The notes below the pieces were generated by a model that was given only the letters and a program-made list of their open reading frames with translations, searched no databases and had not been told where the DNA came from. Source: a virus (Duplodnaviria; Heunggongvirae; Uroviricota; Caudoviricetes). From it: a stretch of DNA of 11,224 nucleotides. The stretch lies in the IMG/VR virus record IMGVR_UViG_2541047682_000007. One strand, 5' to 3'. Shown here piece after piece: positions 4,704-11,224 of the stretch. Made by a program: the position numbers and the translations under genes. Every line of letters starts with the position of its first letter. The first letter of the stretch is position 1.

Positions 4704-4952
4704 ATGGCAAAGGGTGTGTCAATTTCTCCAACTACGGTAAGAATCCCTGAATCTTTACGCGAGGCTCTTGCTGTCAGAGCATCAAAAAATGGTCGCTCTG
4801 TTAACTCCGAGATCGTCATGATTTTGCAAGCCGCGATTGATGAAGATAGGTCGCCAAAGTCAGTTGAGTCATTTGCTCAGCAAGAAGCTGATAAATTCAA
4901 AGAGGCGCTACTTGAGACGCTAAAGACCATGTATGCTAAGGATGAAAAATAA
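4704..4952 (+). CDS. mnt: Mnt repressor (ribbon-helix-helix, 82 aa)
   Basis: ATG at 4704 with AAGGTG 4 nt upstream. Product MAKGVSISPTTVRIPESLREALAVRASKNGRSVNSEI...ALLETLKTMYAKDEK parallels P22 Mnt (82-83 aa; ANGRSMNSE...TLKDLYKK). The track ORF is 5'-extended by an implausible upstream start. Confidence 0.85.
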   Translation: MAKGVSISPTTVRIPESLREALAVRASKNGRSVNSEIVMILQAAIDEDRSPKSVESFAQQEADKFKEALLETLKTMYAKDEK

Positions 4953-5488
4953 TGCTGCACACAATTCATTTCTTATGCCCTGTTAACACTGCCACTGTTG
5001 GGCAACTTCAGAACCACTGTCTCACCGCATTATCTCAAGGCGCAACTGAATTAAATATCCATATATCAAGTCAGGGAGGGGAAACTGCTGCTGGCTTTAC
5101 TGCGTATAACTTTCTTAAGTCACTCCCTGTTACCGTTAGAACTCACAACATAAGCAATGTTGAATCCATAGCTAATATCGTTTTCCTGGCTGGCTCAGAA
5201 CGTTTCGCAAACCCATTATCAAGATTCCTGTTACATCCTCTATTATGGTGCTTTGCCTCCCCAGCCGCCGACCATGCCAGATTGAGAGAGTACGGGAAAT
5301 GCCTCGATAACGATCTTGATCGCTTCGTTGAGACGTTCAATATCGACATCGGAACCCATATTAGGTGGGCATCCCTGATAGCAGACTCGACCATTTTGGA
5401 TGCTAACAAGGCTCTTGAGCATGGCATAATTAATTCCATAAAAACTGCAAGGCTGGCATCCAATCAGGCAAACTGGTGGGTTGTTTGA
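4952..5488 (+). CDS. ClpP-like (peptidase S14 / ClpP-crotonase fold) serine peptidase homolog, 178 aa, translationally coupled to mnt
   Basis: Start ATG overlaps the mnt stop (TAATG at 4950-4954). By-eye alignment to E. coli ClpP: ISSQGG vs INSPGG; NVESIANIVFLAG vs GQAASMGAFLLTAG (catalytic Ser aligned); RFANPLSRFLLHP vs RFCLPNSRVMIHQP (catalytic His aligned); LDNDLDRF vs ERDTERDRF (catalytic Asp aligned). Followed by a terminator hairpin. Confidence 0.7.
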   Translation: MLHTIHFLCPVNTATVGQLQNHCLTALSQGATELNIHISSQGGETAAGFTAYNFLKSLPVTVRTHNISNVESIANIVFLAGSERFANPLSRFLLHPLLWCFASPAADHARLREYGKCLDNDLDRFVETFNIDIGTHIRWASLIADSTILDANKALEHGIINSIKTARLASNQANWWVV

Positions 5489-5538: not shown

Positions 5539-5767
5539 AGTCAAACATAGTGTTTCTAAAGTCTCTCGCATACCCTGCTAACACTCTCATTCTATTATGA
5601 TTGTTAGCAGACATGTGAGCTACAGGATGAAAAAGAGCAATCAATGAATACCTGTTCTCATCAAAAAGATTTTGTGCATAAACGAGAGCGGTATTTGAAG
5701 TGGTTTACTGAATTTGGCCACCTGAACAGAGGTGATATGCTCACCTCAGAACAACACAGGTGCCATA

Positions 5768-6915
<1,148 letters not shown>

Positions 6916-7112
6916 CTCGGTGGCCAGTTTTTGTTGACCACTTCAATGCAACAGTTCGCTATTGCAGGGGCGGCATCGGTTCGCCCTTTCAACCCGATTT
7001 TATCGGTACAGCATTCACGAAAAAACATTTTAACCGGAGCAGACTTTAAACAACCAAGAATGAAAAGCTTGCTCGAAAAGCTTTGGGATATTTTGAAACA
7101 ACAAGGCCGTCC

Positions 7113-7271
7113 ATGAGTTTTACGGATAACTGGTCAGACGAAGAATTCATTCGTCAGATAAAAGAATTAATCGGTAACGAAGGAGATATTCATGTCACTT
7201 GCAACCACAGTGAAGGAGAGCAAGTTACAGAGACGCATGTACACGCAGAAAGCTCTCTGGTATCGCCATAA
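7113..7271 (+). CDS. Hypothetical small protein (52 aa) in the early-left operon upstream of erf
   Basis: ATG at 7113 with AAGG about 7 nt upstream; acidic product MSFTDNWSDEEFIRQIKELIGNEGD.... Overlaps an alternative 56-codon ORF (7192..7362) in another frame, so both cannot be fully correct. Confidence 0.3.
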   Translation: MSFTDNWSDEEFIRQIKELIGNEGDIHVTCNHSEGEQVTETHVHAESSLVSP

Positions 7272-7362
7272 TGGTGACCGCGAAGGAATGCGGGTATGCC
7301 TTAATTTGTCCCGAGTCGAAGTATTAAATCAGCGTTATTTCCTTGGGCCGTGTCCATTCTGA
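7192..7362 (+). CDS. Hypothetical small basic protein (56 aa) immediately upstream of erf (position of arf/kil in P22)
   Basis: ATG at 7192 preceded by AGGAG with a 6-nt spacer. Product MSLATTVKESKLQRRMYTQKALWYRHNGDREGMRVCLNLSRVEVLNQRYFLGPCPF. Stop is 10 nt before the erf start. Below the ORF-track length cutoff, found by manual translation. Confidence 0.3.
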   Translation: MSLATTVKESKLQRRMYTQKALWYRHNGDREGMRVCLNLSRVEVLNQRYFLGPCPF

Positions 7363-7372
7363 GAGCAATCAT

Positions 7373-7978
7373 ATGAGCAAAGAATTTTACGCAAGACTGG
7401 CAGCTATTCAGGAGAATCTGAACGCGCCAAAGAATCAGTACAACTCATTCGGCAAATATAAATACAGAAGCTGCGAAGATATTCTTGAAGGCGTTAAGCC
7501 GTTACTGAACGGTCTGTTTTTATCAATCAGCGATGAAGTTGTGTTGATTGGTGATCGGTATTACGTGAAAGCCACGGCAACTATTACCGATGGCGAAAAC
7601 AGTCATACGGCAACCGCTCTTGCACGAGAGGAAGAAAGCAAGAAAGGAATGGATTCTGCACAAGTTACGGGAGCTACAAGCTCTTATGCACGCAAGTATT
7701 GCCTCAATGGTTTGTTCGGCATTGATGATGCGAAAGATGCAGATACAGACGAGCATAAACATCAGCAGAACGCAGCAGCAAAGCAATCAAAACCATCACT
7801 TACACCTGAACAGGTTCTAAAAGCATTCACTGACGCAGCAATGCAGAAAAACACCGTAGAAGAGCTTAAACAGGCGTTCGCCAAAGCGTGGAAGATGCTC
7901 GAAGGGACGCCGGAGCAGCACAAAGCGCAGGACGTTTACAACATCAGACGAGACGAATTAGAAGGGGCAACTGCTTAA
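7373..7978 (+). CDS. erf: Erf (essential recombination function) single-strand annealing recombinase
   Basis: Product from ATG 7373: MSKEFYARLAAIQENLNAPKNQYNSFGKYKYRSCEDILEGVKPLLNGLFLSISDEVVLIGDRYYVKATATITDGENSH... is near-identical in its N-terminal ~130 aa to my recollection of P22 Erf. The track ORF is extended upstream from a TTG. Confidence 0.9.
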   Translation: MSKEFYARLAAIQENLNAPKNQYNSFGKYKYRSCEDILEGVKPLLNGLFLSISDEVVLIGDRYYVKATATITDGENSHTATALAREEESKKGMDSAQVTGATSSYARKYCLNGLFGIDDAKDADTDEHKHQQNAAAKQSKPSLTPEQVLKAFTDAAMQKNTVEELKQAFAKAWKMLEGTPEQHKAQDVYNIRRDELEGATA

Positions 7979-8361
7979 TGGCACATTCGATTACAGTAAG
8001 ACTAAACAAACCCGCAAGAGAGTTTCAGGGCGGGGAAAATATCGGATTCAACATCCGTGCTGGCGTTCAGTATTACGATCGCCAGACAAAAAAGAAAGAA
8101 TGGACAAACTACAGCGCCGTTGTATTTGCCAAGCCGGGAGCGCAAGCGGATTACTATCGTAGCGTTCTGGTTGAAGGAGGCATTGTAGAAATTACCGGAG
8201 AAAACATCAGGGTTGATGTTTATCAGGGGCAAAATGGTCAATCAATCACTCTTGAATTACTGAATGCAAAGATTGGATTTGCAACTTCAGGAAACAGCCA
8301 ACAGCAGCAAAGTAGCAATCATCAAAATAATCCTGAATACGACGATTCCATCCCATTCTGA
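7978..8361 (+). CDS. ssb: Phage single-stranded DNA-binding protein (short SSB, 127 aa)
   Basis: ATG overlaps the erf stop (TAATG at 7976-7980). OB-fold-like core (KEWTNYSAVVFAKPGAQADYYRSVLVEGGIVEITGE, compare E. coli SSB [33 protein letters not shown]). Gln-rich linker and canonical acidic C-terminal tail ...PEYDDSIPF (E. coli SSB ends DFDDDIPF). Confidence 0.85.
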   Translation: MAHSITVRLNKPAREFQGGENIGFNIRAGVQYYDRQTKKKEWTNYSAVVFAKPGAQADYYRSVLVEGGIVEITGENIRVDVYQGQNGQSITLELLNAKIGFATSGNSQQQQSSNHQNNPEYDDSIPF

Positions 8362-8384
8362 TTTAGAAAAATAAGGATTTAATT

Positions 8385-8681
8385 ATGCCAGCGCCTTTGT
8401 ATGGTGCGGATGACCCGCGCCGCTGTTCCGGCAATTCCGTATCGGAGGTGCTGGATAAATTCAGAAAAAACTACGATCGAATAATGTCTCTACCGCAGGA
8501 AACGAAAGAGGAAAAGGAATTTCGCCACTGTATATGGCTTGCAGAGAAAGAAGAACGCGAGCGAATTTACCAGACATCAATCCGACCATTCCGCAAAGCC
8601 ACATATACCCACTTCCCTGAATATATCGACCCGCGCCTGCGTAATTACCGCTCACGCTATGGCGCTATCAGTAATGACTGA
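8385..8681 (+). CDS. Hypothetical protein (98 aa), Ea-region
   Basis: ATG at 8385 with AAGGA 7 nt upstream. Same strand and operon context as erf-ssb. No recognisable motif. Confidence 0.55.
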   Translation: MPAPLYGADDPRRCSGNSVSEVLDKFRKNYDRIMSLPQETKEEKEFRHCIWLAEKEERERIYQTSIRPFRKATYTHFPEYIDPRLRNYRSRYGAISND

Positions 8682-8775
8682 GGAATTTACCATGAGAGGA
8701 CTTGCTTAAGAGAAAGAGTTTCGGTTCTGTTAATGACAACAAATATCTGAATGCGATGTGGCGGAGTGGGAAGAA

Positions 8776-9294
8776 ATGAAACAAATGTCACTAATTGAGA
8801 TGGATGGTTTTCTGAAAGGTAAATGCATCCCAAGTGATTTAAAGGTTAACGAAACAAACGCTGAATACCTTGTCCGTAAGTTCGGTGAACTTGAATCAAA
8901 ACTGGAAACGGCGTTGCGGGAGTGTAGTTCTGCTGGAATCACGATTGATAACCTTGAGGCTAAATGCGCGAAGATGGCTGCTGAAAATACCTCACTTAAG
9001 CAATCTGAGAAGGAATTTAATGACTTTTGTCGTGAGGAGTTTAGCGAATGGGAAGATGATGTTACTGAAACCCCAGCCACCGATGCTTTTCTGGCTGAAG
9101 TGCGGGCGCAGGGGGTGGATGCTGCTATAGAAGCTGCAAAAAATCTGGTGGCCCAAGAATATGAGTATAAGGATTTCAAAGCGGCGCAGAGTGATTGCTG
9201 TATGCACCCTGGTTCAGACCTGGTAGGGAAGGTTGAAATGACTGAGTGGTTAGTTGACTTTGCTGCCCAGCTTCGCAAAGGAGGCAACCAGTGA
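8776..9294 (+). CDS. Ead/Ea22-like acidic protein (about 172 aa; start uncertain, GTG 8758 or ATG 8776)
   Basis: Long acidic ORF in the Ea region, with GGAG 9 nt upstream of ATG 8776. The family assignment is from general resemblance to lambdoid Ea22-type proteins and is tentative. Confidence 0.55.
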   Translation: MKQMSLIEMDGFLKGKCIPSDLKVNETNAEYLVRKFGELESKLETALRECSSAGITIDNLEAKCAKMAAENTSLKQSEKEFNDFCREEFSEWEDDVTETPATDAFLAEVRAQGVDAAIEAAKNLVAQEYEYKDFKAAQSDCCMHPGSDLVGKVEMTEWLVDFAAQLRKGGNQ

Positions 9295-9590
9295 CTGTAT
9301 GTCTTATTGATAAACGTCGACGTGGGCAACAAATACCATCTGTTGAAATGCCGAATCACACATGGTTTTGCGTACTTGATATCGATGGTATGGATACGTT
9401 GGTTGACACTCGTCATTACTGCGATACCGCAACAGCTACTCCGGCGAAAGCAAAGAAAATGGCTGCTCTGATAGAAAACTGGACTCCACCTGATGGTTGG
9501 TGCAATGGGAATGATCGAGATTGGCACGAAAAAATGAAGGGCTATATCTGCGATTTTTTACGTAAATGCAACGGCTTCAGGGGGATGTGA
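9291..9590 (+). CDS. Hypothetical Cys-containing protein (99 aa), GTG start overlapping upstream stop (GTGA)
   Basis: Strong RBS AAAGGAGG 6 nt upstream of GTG 9291. Start overlaps the stop of the preceding ORF, suggesting translational coupling. Confidence 0.5.
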   Translation: MTVCLIDKRRRGQQIPSVEMPNHTWFCVLDIDGMDTLVDTRHYCDTATATPAKAKKMAALIENWTPPDGWCNGNDRDWHEKMKGYICDFLRKCNGFRGM

Positions 9591-9591
9591 T

Positions 9592-10164
9592 ATGACCAAA
9601 ATTAACTATCAGGCACTGCGTGAGGCGGCAGAACGTGCAATTCCGGCAATGGAACGCCTGTTAATGTTGCCAGTTGATGATGATTTGTTAAGTGAACAGG
9701 AACTTAAGGATTACGGTGTGGATATTGATGCGCTCAACGCCTTCAAATTTCTGACCGGACCAGAAACCGTGCTGGCGCTGCTGGATGAACGGGAAAGAAA
9801 CCAGCAATACATCAAACGCCGCGACCAGGAGAACGAGGAAATTGCGCTAACGGTAGGGAAGCTGCGCGTTGAGCTGGAAGCTGCAGAGAAGCGCATTGCA
9901 GAACTGGAAGCCGAACCTGTAAGCCAAACTTACAAGTTGAACGAGCTGTCGGGCAACTATCCGGTAACTCCGGATGGTTGGATAAGCTGTAGTGAGCGAA
10001 TGCCCGCTCAAGATGATTGGATTTTAATTTATTCAAAGCACGGCGAGTATATGGCAGGACAGGTACAAGGGGAATACGTGGAGTTGAGCGACGGCACTTT
10101 ATCGTGGTTAGGGAACGCCTTGTACTGGATGCCTCTACCGGAACCGCCGCAGGAGGTTAATTGA
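9592..10164 (+). CDS. DUF551-type / Ea22-like prophage protein (190 aa) with central coiled-coil
   Basis: N-terminal MTKINYQALREAAERA... and C-terminal TPDGWISCSERMPAQDDWILIY...LYWMPLPEPP resemble the DUF551 C-terminal domain common in lambdoid early-left regions. Coiled-coil segment KLRVELEAAEKRIAELEAE. ATG 2 nt after the upstream stop. Confidence 0.7.
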   Translation: MTKINYQALREAAERAIPAMERLLMLPVDDDLLSEQELKDYGVDIDALNAFKFLTGPETVLALLDERERNQQYIKRRDQENEEIALTVGKLRVELEAAEKRIAELEAEPVSQTYKLNELSGNYPVTPDGWISCSERMPAQDDWILIYSKHGEYMAGQVQGEYVELSDGTLSWLGNALYWMPLPEPPQEVN

Positions 10165-10358
10165 TGGTCTCCTTCGCGAAATATACGATTATTGACTGGA
10201 TAGCATTCATTCAGGTTTTGCTCATCTGGTTTTATATGGCTTACAGGAGTGGACAGTGGATTGTCAGTGTAGCCTGTAGCAATGGATGGCGTTGGTGGAA
10301 CCGAAAGAATAAAAAAAGCGCTGGCCTTGGCTTCGTTTTACGAAGCATTCAATCTTAA
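10164..10358 (+). CDS. Small hydrophobic (predicted membrane) protein, 64 aa
   Basis: ATG at 10164 overlaps the upstream stop (TGATG) and is preceded by AGGAGG with a 7-nt spacer. Hydrophobic helix IIDWIAFIQVLLIWFYMAY followed by a basic W/R/K-rich tail. Confidence 0.45.
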   Translation: MVSFAKYTIIDWIAFIQVLLIWFYMAYRSGQWIVSVACSNGWRWWNRKNKKSAGLGFVLRSIQS

Positions 10359-10441
10359 CAGTCTTCAGCCTGGTTCTGTCGTTGTAGTCACCACTCAAAG
10401 CGGCATGACGATACAAATTCACAAGCCAAAGGAGGAAGGTC

Positions 10442-10726
10442 GTGGCTAACCTGCAACTTGCCGTTAAAGGTGAATACTTCGATGCCATGATTCGCGGAGA
10501 GAAAACGGAAGAGTATCGCCTGTGTAATGACTACTGGAATAAGCGAATTATGTTCCGCGAGTATGACCGCCTGATTATCACAAAGGGATATCCGAAGCGC
10601 GACGATTCCAGCCGCAGAATTGACGTCCCGTATGACGGATATGAAATCAAGACAATCACACATCCGCACTTCGGCGATAAACCGGTAAAGGTGTTCGCTA
10701 TAAAGGTGAATATCGACAATGAATGA
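10442..10726 (+). CDS. ASCH/PUA-like domain protein (94 aa), GTG start
   Basis: GTG at 10442 preceded by AAGGAGGAAGG. Motif ...GEKTEEYR... resembles the ASCH-domain signature (GxKTxExR) seen in small phage proteins. Assignment is tentative. Confidence 0.55.
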   Translation: MANLQLAVKGEYFDAMIRGEKTEEYRLCNDYWNKRIMFREYDRLIITKGYPKRDDSSRRIDVPYDGYEIKTITHPHFGDKPVKVFAIKVNIDNE

Positions 10727-10798
10727 TAATCCTCGCACTCGCGGGGATTTCTTTTATCTGAACTCGCTACGGCGGGTTTTGTTTTATGGAGATGATAA

Positions 10799-10966
10799 AT
10801 GCACTTCCGAGTCACAGGTGAATGGAATGGAGAGCCATTCAACAGAGTTATCGAAGCAGAGAACATCAACGACTGCTATGACCACTGGATGCTGTGGGCG
10901 CAGATAGCACATGCAGACGTAACTAATATTCGAATTGAAGAACTGAAAGAACACCAAGCCGCCTGA
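10799..10966 (+). CDS. Hypothetical small protein (55 aa)
   Basis: ATG at 10799 with GGAG 7 nt upstream. Product MHFRVTGEWNGEPFNRVIEAENINDCYDHWMLWAQIAHADVTNIRIEELKEHQAA. Stop codon lies in the loop of a terminator hairpin. Below the ORF-track cutoff. Preferred over the overlapping track ORF 10719..10907. Confidence 0.4.
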   Translation: MHFRVTGEWNGEPFNRVIEAENINDCYDHWMLWAQIAHADVTNIRIEELKEHQAA

Positions 10967-10978
10967 TGGCGGTTTTTT
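10956..10978 (+). terminator. Rho-independent terminator at the end of the Ea gene cluster
   Basis: CCGCC-tgat-GGCGG stem-loop (10959-10972) followed by TTTTTTATT. Confidence 0.6.
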
Positions 10979-11023
10979 ATTGCCTGATTTGCAGGTTCGA
11001 TTCCCTATTCGGAGATAGCACTC

Positions 11024-11224
11024 ATGCAACACGAACTACAACCTGATTCACTGGTTGATTTGAAATTCATCATGGCCGATACTGGCTTCGGTAAAACCTT
11101 CATCTATGACCGGATTAAGTCCGGCGACCTGCCAAAAGCCAAAGTTATCCACGGGCGAGCAAGATGGTTATATCGTGACCATTGTGAATTCAAAAATAAG
11201 CTCTTAAGCCGCGCCAATGGGTAA
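11024..11224 (+). CDS. xis: Excisionase / AlpA-family DNA-binding protein (Xis), 66 aa
   Basis: GGAG 9 nt upstream of ATG 11024. Product carries an AlpA/Xis-like pattern (FIMADTGFGKTFIYDRIKSGDLPKAKVIHGRARWLYRD..., compare the typical ...TGLSRSTIYRLIKEGKFPKP...GRSVRW...). Lies at the distal end of the early-left operon, where xis precedes int in P22-like prophages. Confidence 0.65.
   Translation: MQHELQPDSLVDLKFIMADTGFGKTFIYDRIKSGDLPKAKVIHGRARWLYRDHCEFKNKLLSRANG

Follow-up and report, generated by a model that had tools for sequence, protein, structure and literature searches.

An Erf–SSB–Abc2 Recombination Module of a Known Lambdoid Type in an IS-Truncated, CUS-3-like Prophage Remnant of Escherichia coli

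Introduction

Does the short gene that directly follows erf in a defective Escherichia coli prophage encode a single-stranded DNA (ssDNA)-binding protein (SSB), and does it form a functional pair with the annealase gene before it? The question is raised by the virus record IMGVR_UViG_2541047682_000007 of IMG/VR, a stretch of 11,224 nucleotides that was analysed at its full length and is called the window here. A first-pass annotation of the window, made from the letters alone, had described positions 7373–8361 as a P22-type Erf annealase followed by a compact SSB with an acidic C-terminal tail, the two together forming a mosaic recombination module.

The reading that we propose is that this region stems from the early left of a CUS-3-like temperate phage and is its recombination module, surviving at argW and composed of an ERF-family annealase, a divergent SSB of the HK97 gp40 type ("SSB-1b") and Abc2, in which the SSB coats ssDNA and its C-terminal tip recruits Erf. 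We consider this reading probable, at roughly 80%. The Erf–SSB pair as such is already known: it is a standard module, present in near-identical form in sequenced phages.

Results

The erf and ssb Genes Overlap by One Base

Direct reading of the DNA gave exactly the gene coordinates, the TAATG overlap and the DDSIPF end that had been noted in the first-pass annotation. The erf frame starts with the ATG at 7373 (MSKEFYARL...), comprises 201 codons and ends with the TAA stop at 7976–7978. The last A of this stop codon (7978) is at the same time the first base of the ssb ATG (7978–7980), so that the overlap forms the pentamer TAATG at 7976–7980. The ssb frame has 127 codons, ends with ...NNPEYDDSIPF and is closed by the stop codon at 8359–8361. 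The program-made list of open reading frames (ORFs) had extended both frames upstream, to a TTG and a GTG codon, with erf begun at the TTG at 7343. We set the start of erf at 7373 because P22 Erf and all its relatives begin with MSKEFY, and the start of ssb at 7978 on account of the starts of its homologues.

The purine-rich sequence AAGGGG (7962–7967), located 10 nt before the ssb start, is a possible Shine–Dalgarno site. The spacing of −1, that is, the one-base overlap, was kept in all 80 IMG/VR loci that encode the same Erf N-terminal domain, and in P22 the final base of the erf stop likewise opens the abc1 gene. Such an overlap of stop and start would keep Erf and SSB co-translated through translational coupling.

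The First Gene Encodes a P22-Type Erf with a Diverged C-Terminal Domain

Against the Pfam family PF04404 (ERF; cutoff of 25 bits), the protein encoded by the first gene scores 150.9 bits over residues 5–141 (E = 3.5e-44), and it matches PHROG 155, "Erf-like ssDNA annealing protein", at E = 5.9e-57. It is 75% identical to P22 Erf over 200 residues, with the identity distributed unevenly: the first 135 residues are approximately 92% identical to P22-type Erf, and the C-terminal ~65 residues approximately 42%. The P22-type Erf assigned at first sight was thus borne out by both the profile and the alignment. The protein consists of an ERF domain (residues ~1–135), a short linker rich in Q, K and P, and a C-terminal domain (residues ~145–200). 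The AlphaFold2 (AF2) model of residues 136–201 is a three-helix bundle with a predicted local distance difference test (pLDDT) score of 85. As an ERF-family annealase, the protein probably anneals ssDNA and forms rings in the manner of P22 Erf.

The Second Gene Is Predicted to Encode a Compact, Highly Diverged SSB

The product of the second gene is assigned to PHROG 44, the family named "single strand DNA binding protein", with E = 3.4e-29. Its AF2 model, built from 44 homologues and for the monomer only, is an OB barrel with a pLDDT above 90 at residues 1–105 and one helix (residues 55–63) between the strands, which is the SSB type of the OB fold. The pLDDT drops below 50 at residues 107–120, a disordered stretch that precedes the tail. 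When the PDB was searched with this fold, the best matches were bacterial SSB and PriB, the latter scoring nearly as well, and the structural alignments had 14–19% identity.

A profile alignment with the E. coli SSB was obtained using hhalign at a probability of 92.7%, and it covers the DNA-binding core. In this alignment, Y32, W42, F50 and Y82 stand opposite W40, W54, F60 and W88, the residues with which the E. coli SSB stacks on ssDNA. Within the family of the phage protein, F50 never varies, Y32 and W42 hardly do, and position 82 has an aromatic residue in most members. The alignment also places a Thr at the position of His55, a residue important for the formation of the E. coli SSB tetramer.

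Database searches returned 160 homologues. The C-terminal end acidic-x-(I/P/A)PF is present in 81 of the 107 full-length ones, while the linker before it varies both in length and in sequence; the resemblance of the tail to that of host SSBs, for which coincidence had been considered, is therefore not accidental. The column entropy is lowest in the OB domain (0.87), followed by the tip (1.52) and the linker (2.49), and the ratio of nonsynonymous to synonymous substitution rates (dN/dS) against diverged copies is 0.02–0.10. Given the Pfam ERF and PHROG 44 matches, the number of homologues, these dN/dS values and the overlap found in 80 of 80 loci, erf and ssb are real genes and not chance ORFs. 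The PHROG 44 match, the AF2 fold, the aligned aromatic residues, the conserved tail and the constraint together indicate a predicted protein that is compact and highly diverged but made up, like a bacterial SSB, of three parts: an OB domain, a disordered linker and an acidic tip. Accordingly, the compact SSB with an acidic tail that had been described for this locus gained an OB fold, matches to SSB folds, the stacking aromatics and a conserved tail, and it falls short only at the curated profiles considered below.

One Extra Base Has Removed the Tip from the HK97 Reference Copy

The gp40 gene of the HK97 reference sequence (HK97 locus, 2368–2757) encodes a protein ending with DDSNPILI, as compared with DDSIPF in the window (8335–8361, stop codon included). 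The loss of the tip results from a single extra A, GATTCC[A]ATCCCATTC, relative to both the window and CUS-3. This A is either a mutation of the laboratory stock or a sequencing error.

Among the 80 IMG/VR loci, one carries a frameshifted ssb and one an altered tail. In phage HF4s (1866–2261), the annotation gives the gp40-type gene as an "ssb protein" of 94 aa, which a 111-bp ORF over the remaining span follows directly; to judge from this ORF layout alone, it looks like a frameshifted copy. A few copies in IMG/VR and in the databases are shortened in much the same manner.

Different SSBs and Abc1 Occupy the Place after erf

A gp40-type gene directly follows erf in all 80 IMG/VR loci with the Erf N-terminal domain of the window. 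In other Enterobacterales, the gene after erf encodes SSB-1b, an E. coli-like SSB with approximately 73% identity to that of the host, or Abc1, both kinds of SSB having an IPF or PPF tip and Abc1 being confined to the P22-type loci. In Firmicutes and other phyla (GTDB loci), an SSB with an ELPF or DLPF tip often follows erf. The E. coli-like SSBs, found in IMG/VR and GTDB behind some of the erf genes that encode a C-terminal domain of the window type, are approximately 61–74% identical to the host SSB, have 153–168 aa and end with tails such as DFDDDIPF. Sequence comparison thus indicates that two kinds of SSB, differing in sequence, are swapped behind the same type of annealase.

We also considered whether the type of the Erf C-terminal domain co-varies with the downstream partner. 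The domain of the window type (74–97% identity) occurs with both SSB-1b and the E. coli-like SSB, and the P22-type domain occurs with Abc1 only; equally diverged C-terminal domains (31–44% identity) are also paired with SSBs. The pattern is suggestive when P22 is set against the others but yields no clean rule, and linkage alone accounts for it equally well.

When the gene of phage HK620 described below is included, four sequence-unrelated proteins (Abc1, HkaK, SSB-1b and the E. coli-like SSB) occupy the slot between the annealase gene and abc2 in P22-like and HK97-like phages, and three of them are SSBs with a ...PF tip. Judged from these gene comparisons, the slot is a mosaic hot spot. The term mosaic module, used in the first-pass annotation, holds in this general lambdoid sense; it does not describe a local novelty, as the module is of a standard type and was inherited whole from a CUS-3-like phage. 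The erf–ssb pair is present in 556 of 5426 complete E. coli genomes (~10%), in which the ssb gene carries the PGAP/NCBI name "hypothetical protein".

The Module Lies in a CUS-3-like Prophage Remnant Cut by an Insertion Sequence

The window is what is left of a defective CUS-3-like (P22-like) prophage at the argW locus of E. coli. The positions of its features are given in Table 1.

Table 1. Features of the window and of the proteins encoded in positions 7373–8361.
Feature	Position	Strand	Basis
Tailspike, 981 aa	256–3201	minus	
IS3-family insertion sequence (ISEc52-like)	5696–6945	+	OrfA/OrfB, terminal inverted repeats
cIII-like gene	6946–7116	+	PHROG 550 "CIII anti-termination", E = 1e-22; counterpart HK542 gp32
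arf-slot ORF 1, 52 aa	7113–7271	+	PHROG 2123, E = 6e-41; CUS-3 ECRS218_0052
arf-slot ORF 2, 56 aa	7192–7362	+	PHROG 1723, E = 9e-36; CUS-3 ECRS218_0053
erf, single-strand annealing protein, 201 aa	7373–7978	+	Pfam PF04404, PHROG 155, P22 Erf homology
Translational junction	7962–7980	+	AAGGGG 7962–7967 plus TAATG 7976–7980
ssb, divergent phage SSB (HK97 gp40 type, "SSB-1b"), 127 aa	7978–8361	+	PHROG 44, fold, alignment
SSB, predicted OB domain, residues 1–103	7978–8286	+	
SSB, predicted disordered Q/N/S-rich linker, residues 104–119	8287–8334	+	
SSB, acidic tip EYDDSIPF, residues 120–127	8335–8358	+	
abc2, RecBCD-modifying (anti-RecBCD) protein, third gene of the module	8385–8681	+	Pfam PF11043, E = 4.3e-62

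An insertion sequence (IS) divides the remnant into two parts. Its terminal inverted repeats are imperfect, 28 nt long (5695–5722 and 6919–6946) and end with TG...CA, and its RefSeq name is "IS3-like element ISEc52 family transposase". On the right, the IS directly adjoins the ATG of the cIII-like gene (6946). The IS marks a deletion junction, at which everything between the immI region and cIII has been replaced. The abutment of its right end on the cIII ATG implies that the remnant has lost PL, N and the genes for immunity, replication, lysis and the head, along with most of the morphogenesis genes. In related E. coli genomes, the same IS was found elsewhere within the same prophage, for example, inside ant.

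To the right of the IS, the genes follow in the order cIII, two arf-slot ORFs, erf, ssb, abc2, several ea-type genes and torI/xis. The two arf-slot ORFs overlap in different frames, and the PHROGs that they match are both labelled "recombinase". In HK97, both are fused into a single 83-aa gp42 with an internal start, which matches both PHROGs. The resemblance of ORF 1 to P22 Arf is confined to one stretch of 10 residues, and the arf-slot ORFs are essentially unrelated to Arf. HK75 Gp33, which has the arf-slot position, triggers the P2 OLD defence (2026 preprint). Abc2 is 93% identical to its P22 counterpart.

To the left of the IS, the window also contains the ant and arc/mnt genes. A gene for a ClpP-like serine protease (4952–5488) adjoins the mnt/arc immI region; its relatives bear the RefSeq label "ATP-dependent Clp protease proteolytic subunit", and its position beside immI is unusual for a P22-like phage. 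Most of the length of the tailspike is common to the K1-associated phages CUS-3 and phiv205-1, and the RefSeq annotation of its relatives names an endosialidase beta-propeller domain. The N-terminus of the tailspike is presumably of the P22 head-binding type. The annotation of the tailspike is compatible with a CUS-3-like phage specific for the K1 capsule.

The last ORF of the window (11024–11224) encodes a TorI-type excisionase. The integrase gene intS of the related genome CEA212U lies at the opposite end of the prophage beside tRNA-Arg (argW). This layout of IntS and xis is that of KplE1 and HK620, with attP between int and xis.

Over positions 7113–11004, the window is 99.9% identical to CUS-3 at the DNA level. 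The two genes of the pair are indeed intact despite the loss of the replication genes, as had been remarked in the first-pass annotation, and this bears no sign of selection: the identity to CUS-3 indicates that the deletion is recent, and the intactness of erf and ssb is uninformative on selection by the host. That these genes are whole most simply reflects how recent the deletion is, and not any demonstrable use.

Discussion

A Proposed Course of Recombination and the Points That Weigh against It

The course of events that we propose for the module is built by analogy with the HK620 and lambda systems and, for Abc2, on the P22 literature. During lytic growth, after induction or infection, Abc2 would modify RecBCD so that 3′ single strands are produced. 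The phage SSB would coat the resulting ssDNA, and its C-terminal tip would recruit Erf, probably via the three-helix C-terminal domain of the latter. Erf would then anneal the complementary strands. The SSB tip would also recruit host proteins that bind SSB tips; that the tail could attract host SSB-interacting proteins is plausible by the same analogy.

Several points weigh against this proposal. The SSB gave no match in Pfam at E ≤ 0.1, and its score against TIGR00621 is 19.1 bits, below the cutoff of 53.95. The best PDB match in a sequence search is the SSB 7d8j with a sub-threshold E = 0.036. As the curated profiles and the PDB sequence search all stay below threshold, the evidence for placing the protein among the SSBs is its match to PHROG 44, its fold and the alignment. 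A profile search had been named as the check on an SSB at this locus; its outcome in Pfam alone, taken literally, speaks against one, and PHROG 44, the fold and the alignment settle the matter in favour of an SSB. The binding of ssDNA by this protein and its contact with Erf are putative and were drawn from analogy, and the HK97 gp40-type family to which it belongs has been called unstudied (PMC12315714). A Foldseek search of the PDB with the C-terminal bundle of Erf returned only generic helical matches, none of them significant (E > 1), and a likeness of this domain to the SSB-binding C-terminal domain of Red-beta, which we had considered, gained no support from them. The tip of the SSB is dispensable for forming plaques in the laboratory, since HK97 is a viable phage and its reference sequence lacks the tip. 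Last, no sigma-70-like promoter was found in a scan of positions 6700–8800. As the operon is cut off from PL and N, and no promoter-like site lies between the IS and abc2, expression in the remnant would need read-through from the IS.

Other Explanations of the Pair

The protein encoded after erf might be mainly a decoy or adaptor that bears a tail, an analogue of Abc1, its IPF tip competing with the host SSB for partners such as ExoI, RecQ and RecJ or modulating RecBCD together with Abc2. Its gene occupies the exact slot of P22 abc1, sharing one base with erf in the same way and lying just before abc2; its linker of ~16 residues is very short in comparison with that of the E. coli SSB, and the tip has been conserved while the OB domain drifted past recognition by SSB profiles. 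However, constraint within the protein is strongest in the OB domain (entropy of 0.87; dN/dS of 0.02–0.10), and the aromatic residues that it has at the ssDNA-stacking positions vary little or not at all, as would be expected of an ssDNA binder and not of a mere carrier of a tail. In addition, the same slot elsewhere holds bona fide SSBs, namely the E. coli-like SSB and HK620 HkaK, which binds ssDNA in vitro, and the protein has no sequence similarity to Abc1. A decoy is, in our view, unlikely. An OB protein of another class, such as a PriB-like replication-restart factor or an RNA-binding protein with an IPF ending by coincidence, we hold to be very improbable. PriB does nearly equal SSB in the fold searches, and the curated SSB profiles do not recognize the protein, but the tip is conserved at the extreme C-terminus in some 80 homologues while the linker varies freely, the gene is fixed beside the annealase gene in a recombination module, and the profile alignment to the E. 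coli SSB spans the DNA-binding core. To our knowledge, PriB proteins have no such tail.

A further explanation concerns the remnant as a whole: the erf–ssb–abc2 cassette could have been domesticated and kept by selection in the host, for example, for RecA-independent recombination or repair, or for interference with incoming phages. Although the phage is dead, every gene from cIII to xis is intact, the IS transposase genes run in the same direction as the recombination operon, which makes read-through transcription possible, and similar IS-truncated remnants are present in several E. coli genomes. On the other hand, the near-identity to the functional phage CUS-3 (99.9%) means that decay has had no time to set in, and the stretch between the IS and abc2 contains no promoter-like site. 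Matches covering at least 80% of the window were found in only 3 of the 5426 E. coli genomes, and the related variants are truncated at different points, which fits independent recent deletions and not a conserved locus. We therefore regard domestication as quite improbable, less so than a PriB-like protein but more so than a decoy.

Within the reading of the region as an Erf–SSB–Abc2 module of a CUS-3-like phage, a narrower idea concerns the tip. As the three SSBs of the slot share only the ...(I/P)PF tip, it might be the tip, and not the OB domain, that is selected to partner the annealase's C-terminal domain, the tip of SSB-1b being a dedicated signal for loading Erf. We put this forward as a speculation that is rather doubtful. 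If the tip is such a signal, it could be used to make Erf portable for recombineering.

Significance of the Pair

As a discovery, the pair matters little, since this type of module has been catalogued and is carried by approximately one in ten complete E. coli genomes. What our analysis adds to the sources is the conserved, host-like acidic IPF tip of the SSB-1b family together with its SSB-type aromatic residues, and the loss of the tip from the HK97 reference through a single extra A. That the prototype of the family lacks the tip is relevant to tests of gp40 function and to Erf-based recombineering tools; contacts between annealases and SSB tails are known to limit portability (PMC11611040). 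The SSB-1b family escapes routine annotation, being missed by Pfam and TIGRFAM and named "hypothetical protein" at NCBI. Phage SSBs are known triggers of defence systems, for example, Retron-Eco8 and AbpAB, and a widespread unannotated prophage SSB is for this reason worth including in defence screens.

Comparison with Known Systems

The closest systems are the Rec modules of HK97, HK022, HK75 and CUS-3, which have the same order of genes: one or more arf-slot ORFs, erf, a gp40-type gene with the one-base overlap, and abc2. At the DNA level, positions 7000–8700 are 95–99.9% identical to CUS-3, phiv205-1, Sf101, HK97, HK022, HK106, HK542 and HK633, as well as to several mEp phages and many Stx phages. 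The comparison with P22-like phages that had been suggested for the erf–ssb pair thus found it in CUS-3, HK97, HK022 and others. The SSB itself is 93.7–98.4% identical to the gp40 proteins of HK97 and HK022 and has the same flanking genes, which places it in the HK97 gp40 ("SSB-1b") type. The second gene is gp40 in HK97 and ECRS218_0055 in CUS-3, and it is annotated only as Gp40 or as hypothetical. The copy in the window has no substantial difference from the HK97 group; it lies in an IS-truncated prophage without PL, and it keeps the DDSIPF tip that is lost from the HK97 reference.

A survey of 325 lambdoid phages (PMC12315714; Genome Research, 2025) named HK97 gp40 SSB-1b on the basis of an AlphaFold 3 fold similar to those of bacterial SSBs. 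It also defined an "HK75" functional type, represented by 27 phages and consisting of an anti-RecBCD protein, an SSB and an annealase, with no nuclease. The terms "acidic", "C-terminal tail" and "IPF" do not occur in its main text. The HK75 protein in the ssb slot is still termed uncharacterised in a preprint of July 2026.

P22, with its gene order arf–erf–abc1–abc2, has the same operon position and the same one-base overlap, and its Erf and Abc2 are 75% and 93% identical to those of the window, respectively. The slot after erf is occupied in P22 by Abc1, a protein of 94 aa, as compared with the SSB of 127 aa here. The statement in the first-pass annotation that P22 has erf without an SSB proved right, as the Abc1 found in the slot is unrelated; in agreement with this, the survey cited above reports that the Rec modules of P22, lambda and Rac encode no SSB (PMC12315714). 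The 94-aa "ssb" of HF4s had suggested that Abc1 might be a truncated or diverged relative of the SSB. This was rejected, as the two proteins have no similarity, and BLASTP gave no alignment between them at E ≤ 100.

The phage SSB resembles that of E. coli in its OB fold with one helix, in the four aromatic positions, in the disordered linker and in the acidic IPF tip (DDSIPF here, DDDIPF in E. coli). It differs in its linker of ~16 residues, far shorter than that of the 178-aa E. coli SSB, in its scores below the thresholds of the curated profiles and in the Thr at the His55 position.

In phages of Firmicutes, erf is often directly followed by ssb, as in the window, with ELPF or DLPF tails in the GTDB loci, and approximately 80% of erf genes are associated with an adjacent ssb gene (PMC8093625). 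These modules differ in that their SSBs are canonical members of PF00436 (PMC8093625) and that they are flanked by Mu Gam-like, DUF2483 and rep genes and have no abc2. In lambda, the C-terminal domain of Red-beta binds the last ~9 residues of the host SSB, a contact that is needed in vivo (PMC11611040).

In the P22-like phage HK620, the sak4–ssb pair (HkaL–HkaK) likewise places a phage SSB with a ...PPF tail directly after the annealase and before abc2. The annealase of HK620 is, however, the RecA-like Sak4 and not Erf, and HkaK is an SSB of another type ("SSB-2", DUF669-like). A relationship between the SSB of the window and HkaK was considered and rejected, with E = 74 in BLASTP and a probability of 0.3% in hhalign. 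HkaK binds ssDNA in vitro; the HK620 SSB stimulates Sak4 approximately 10-fold in vivo only when it has its last six residues, and the same residues are needed for the binding of Sak4 to SSB-coated ssDNA (PMC5928155). The HK620 pair is the best experimental model of how the Erf–SSB pair described here could work.

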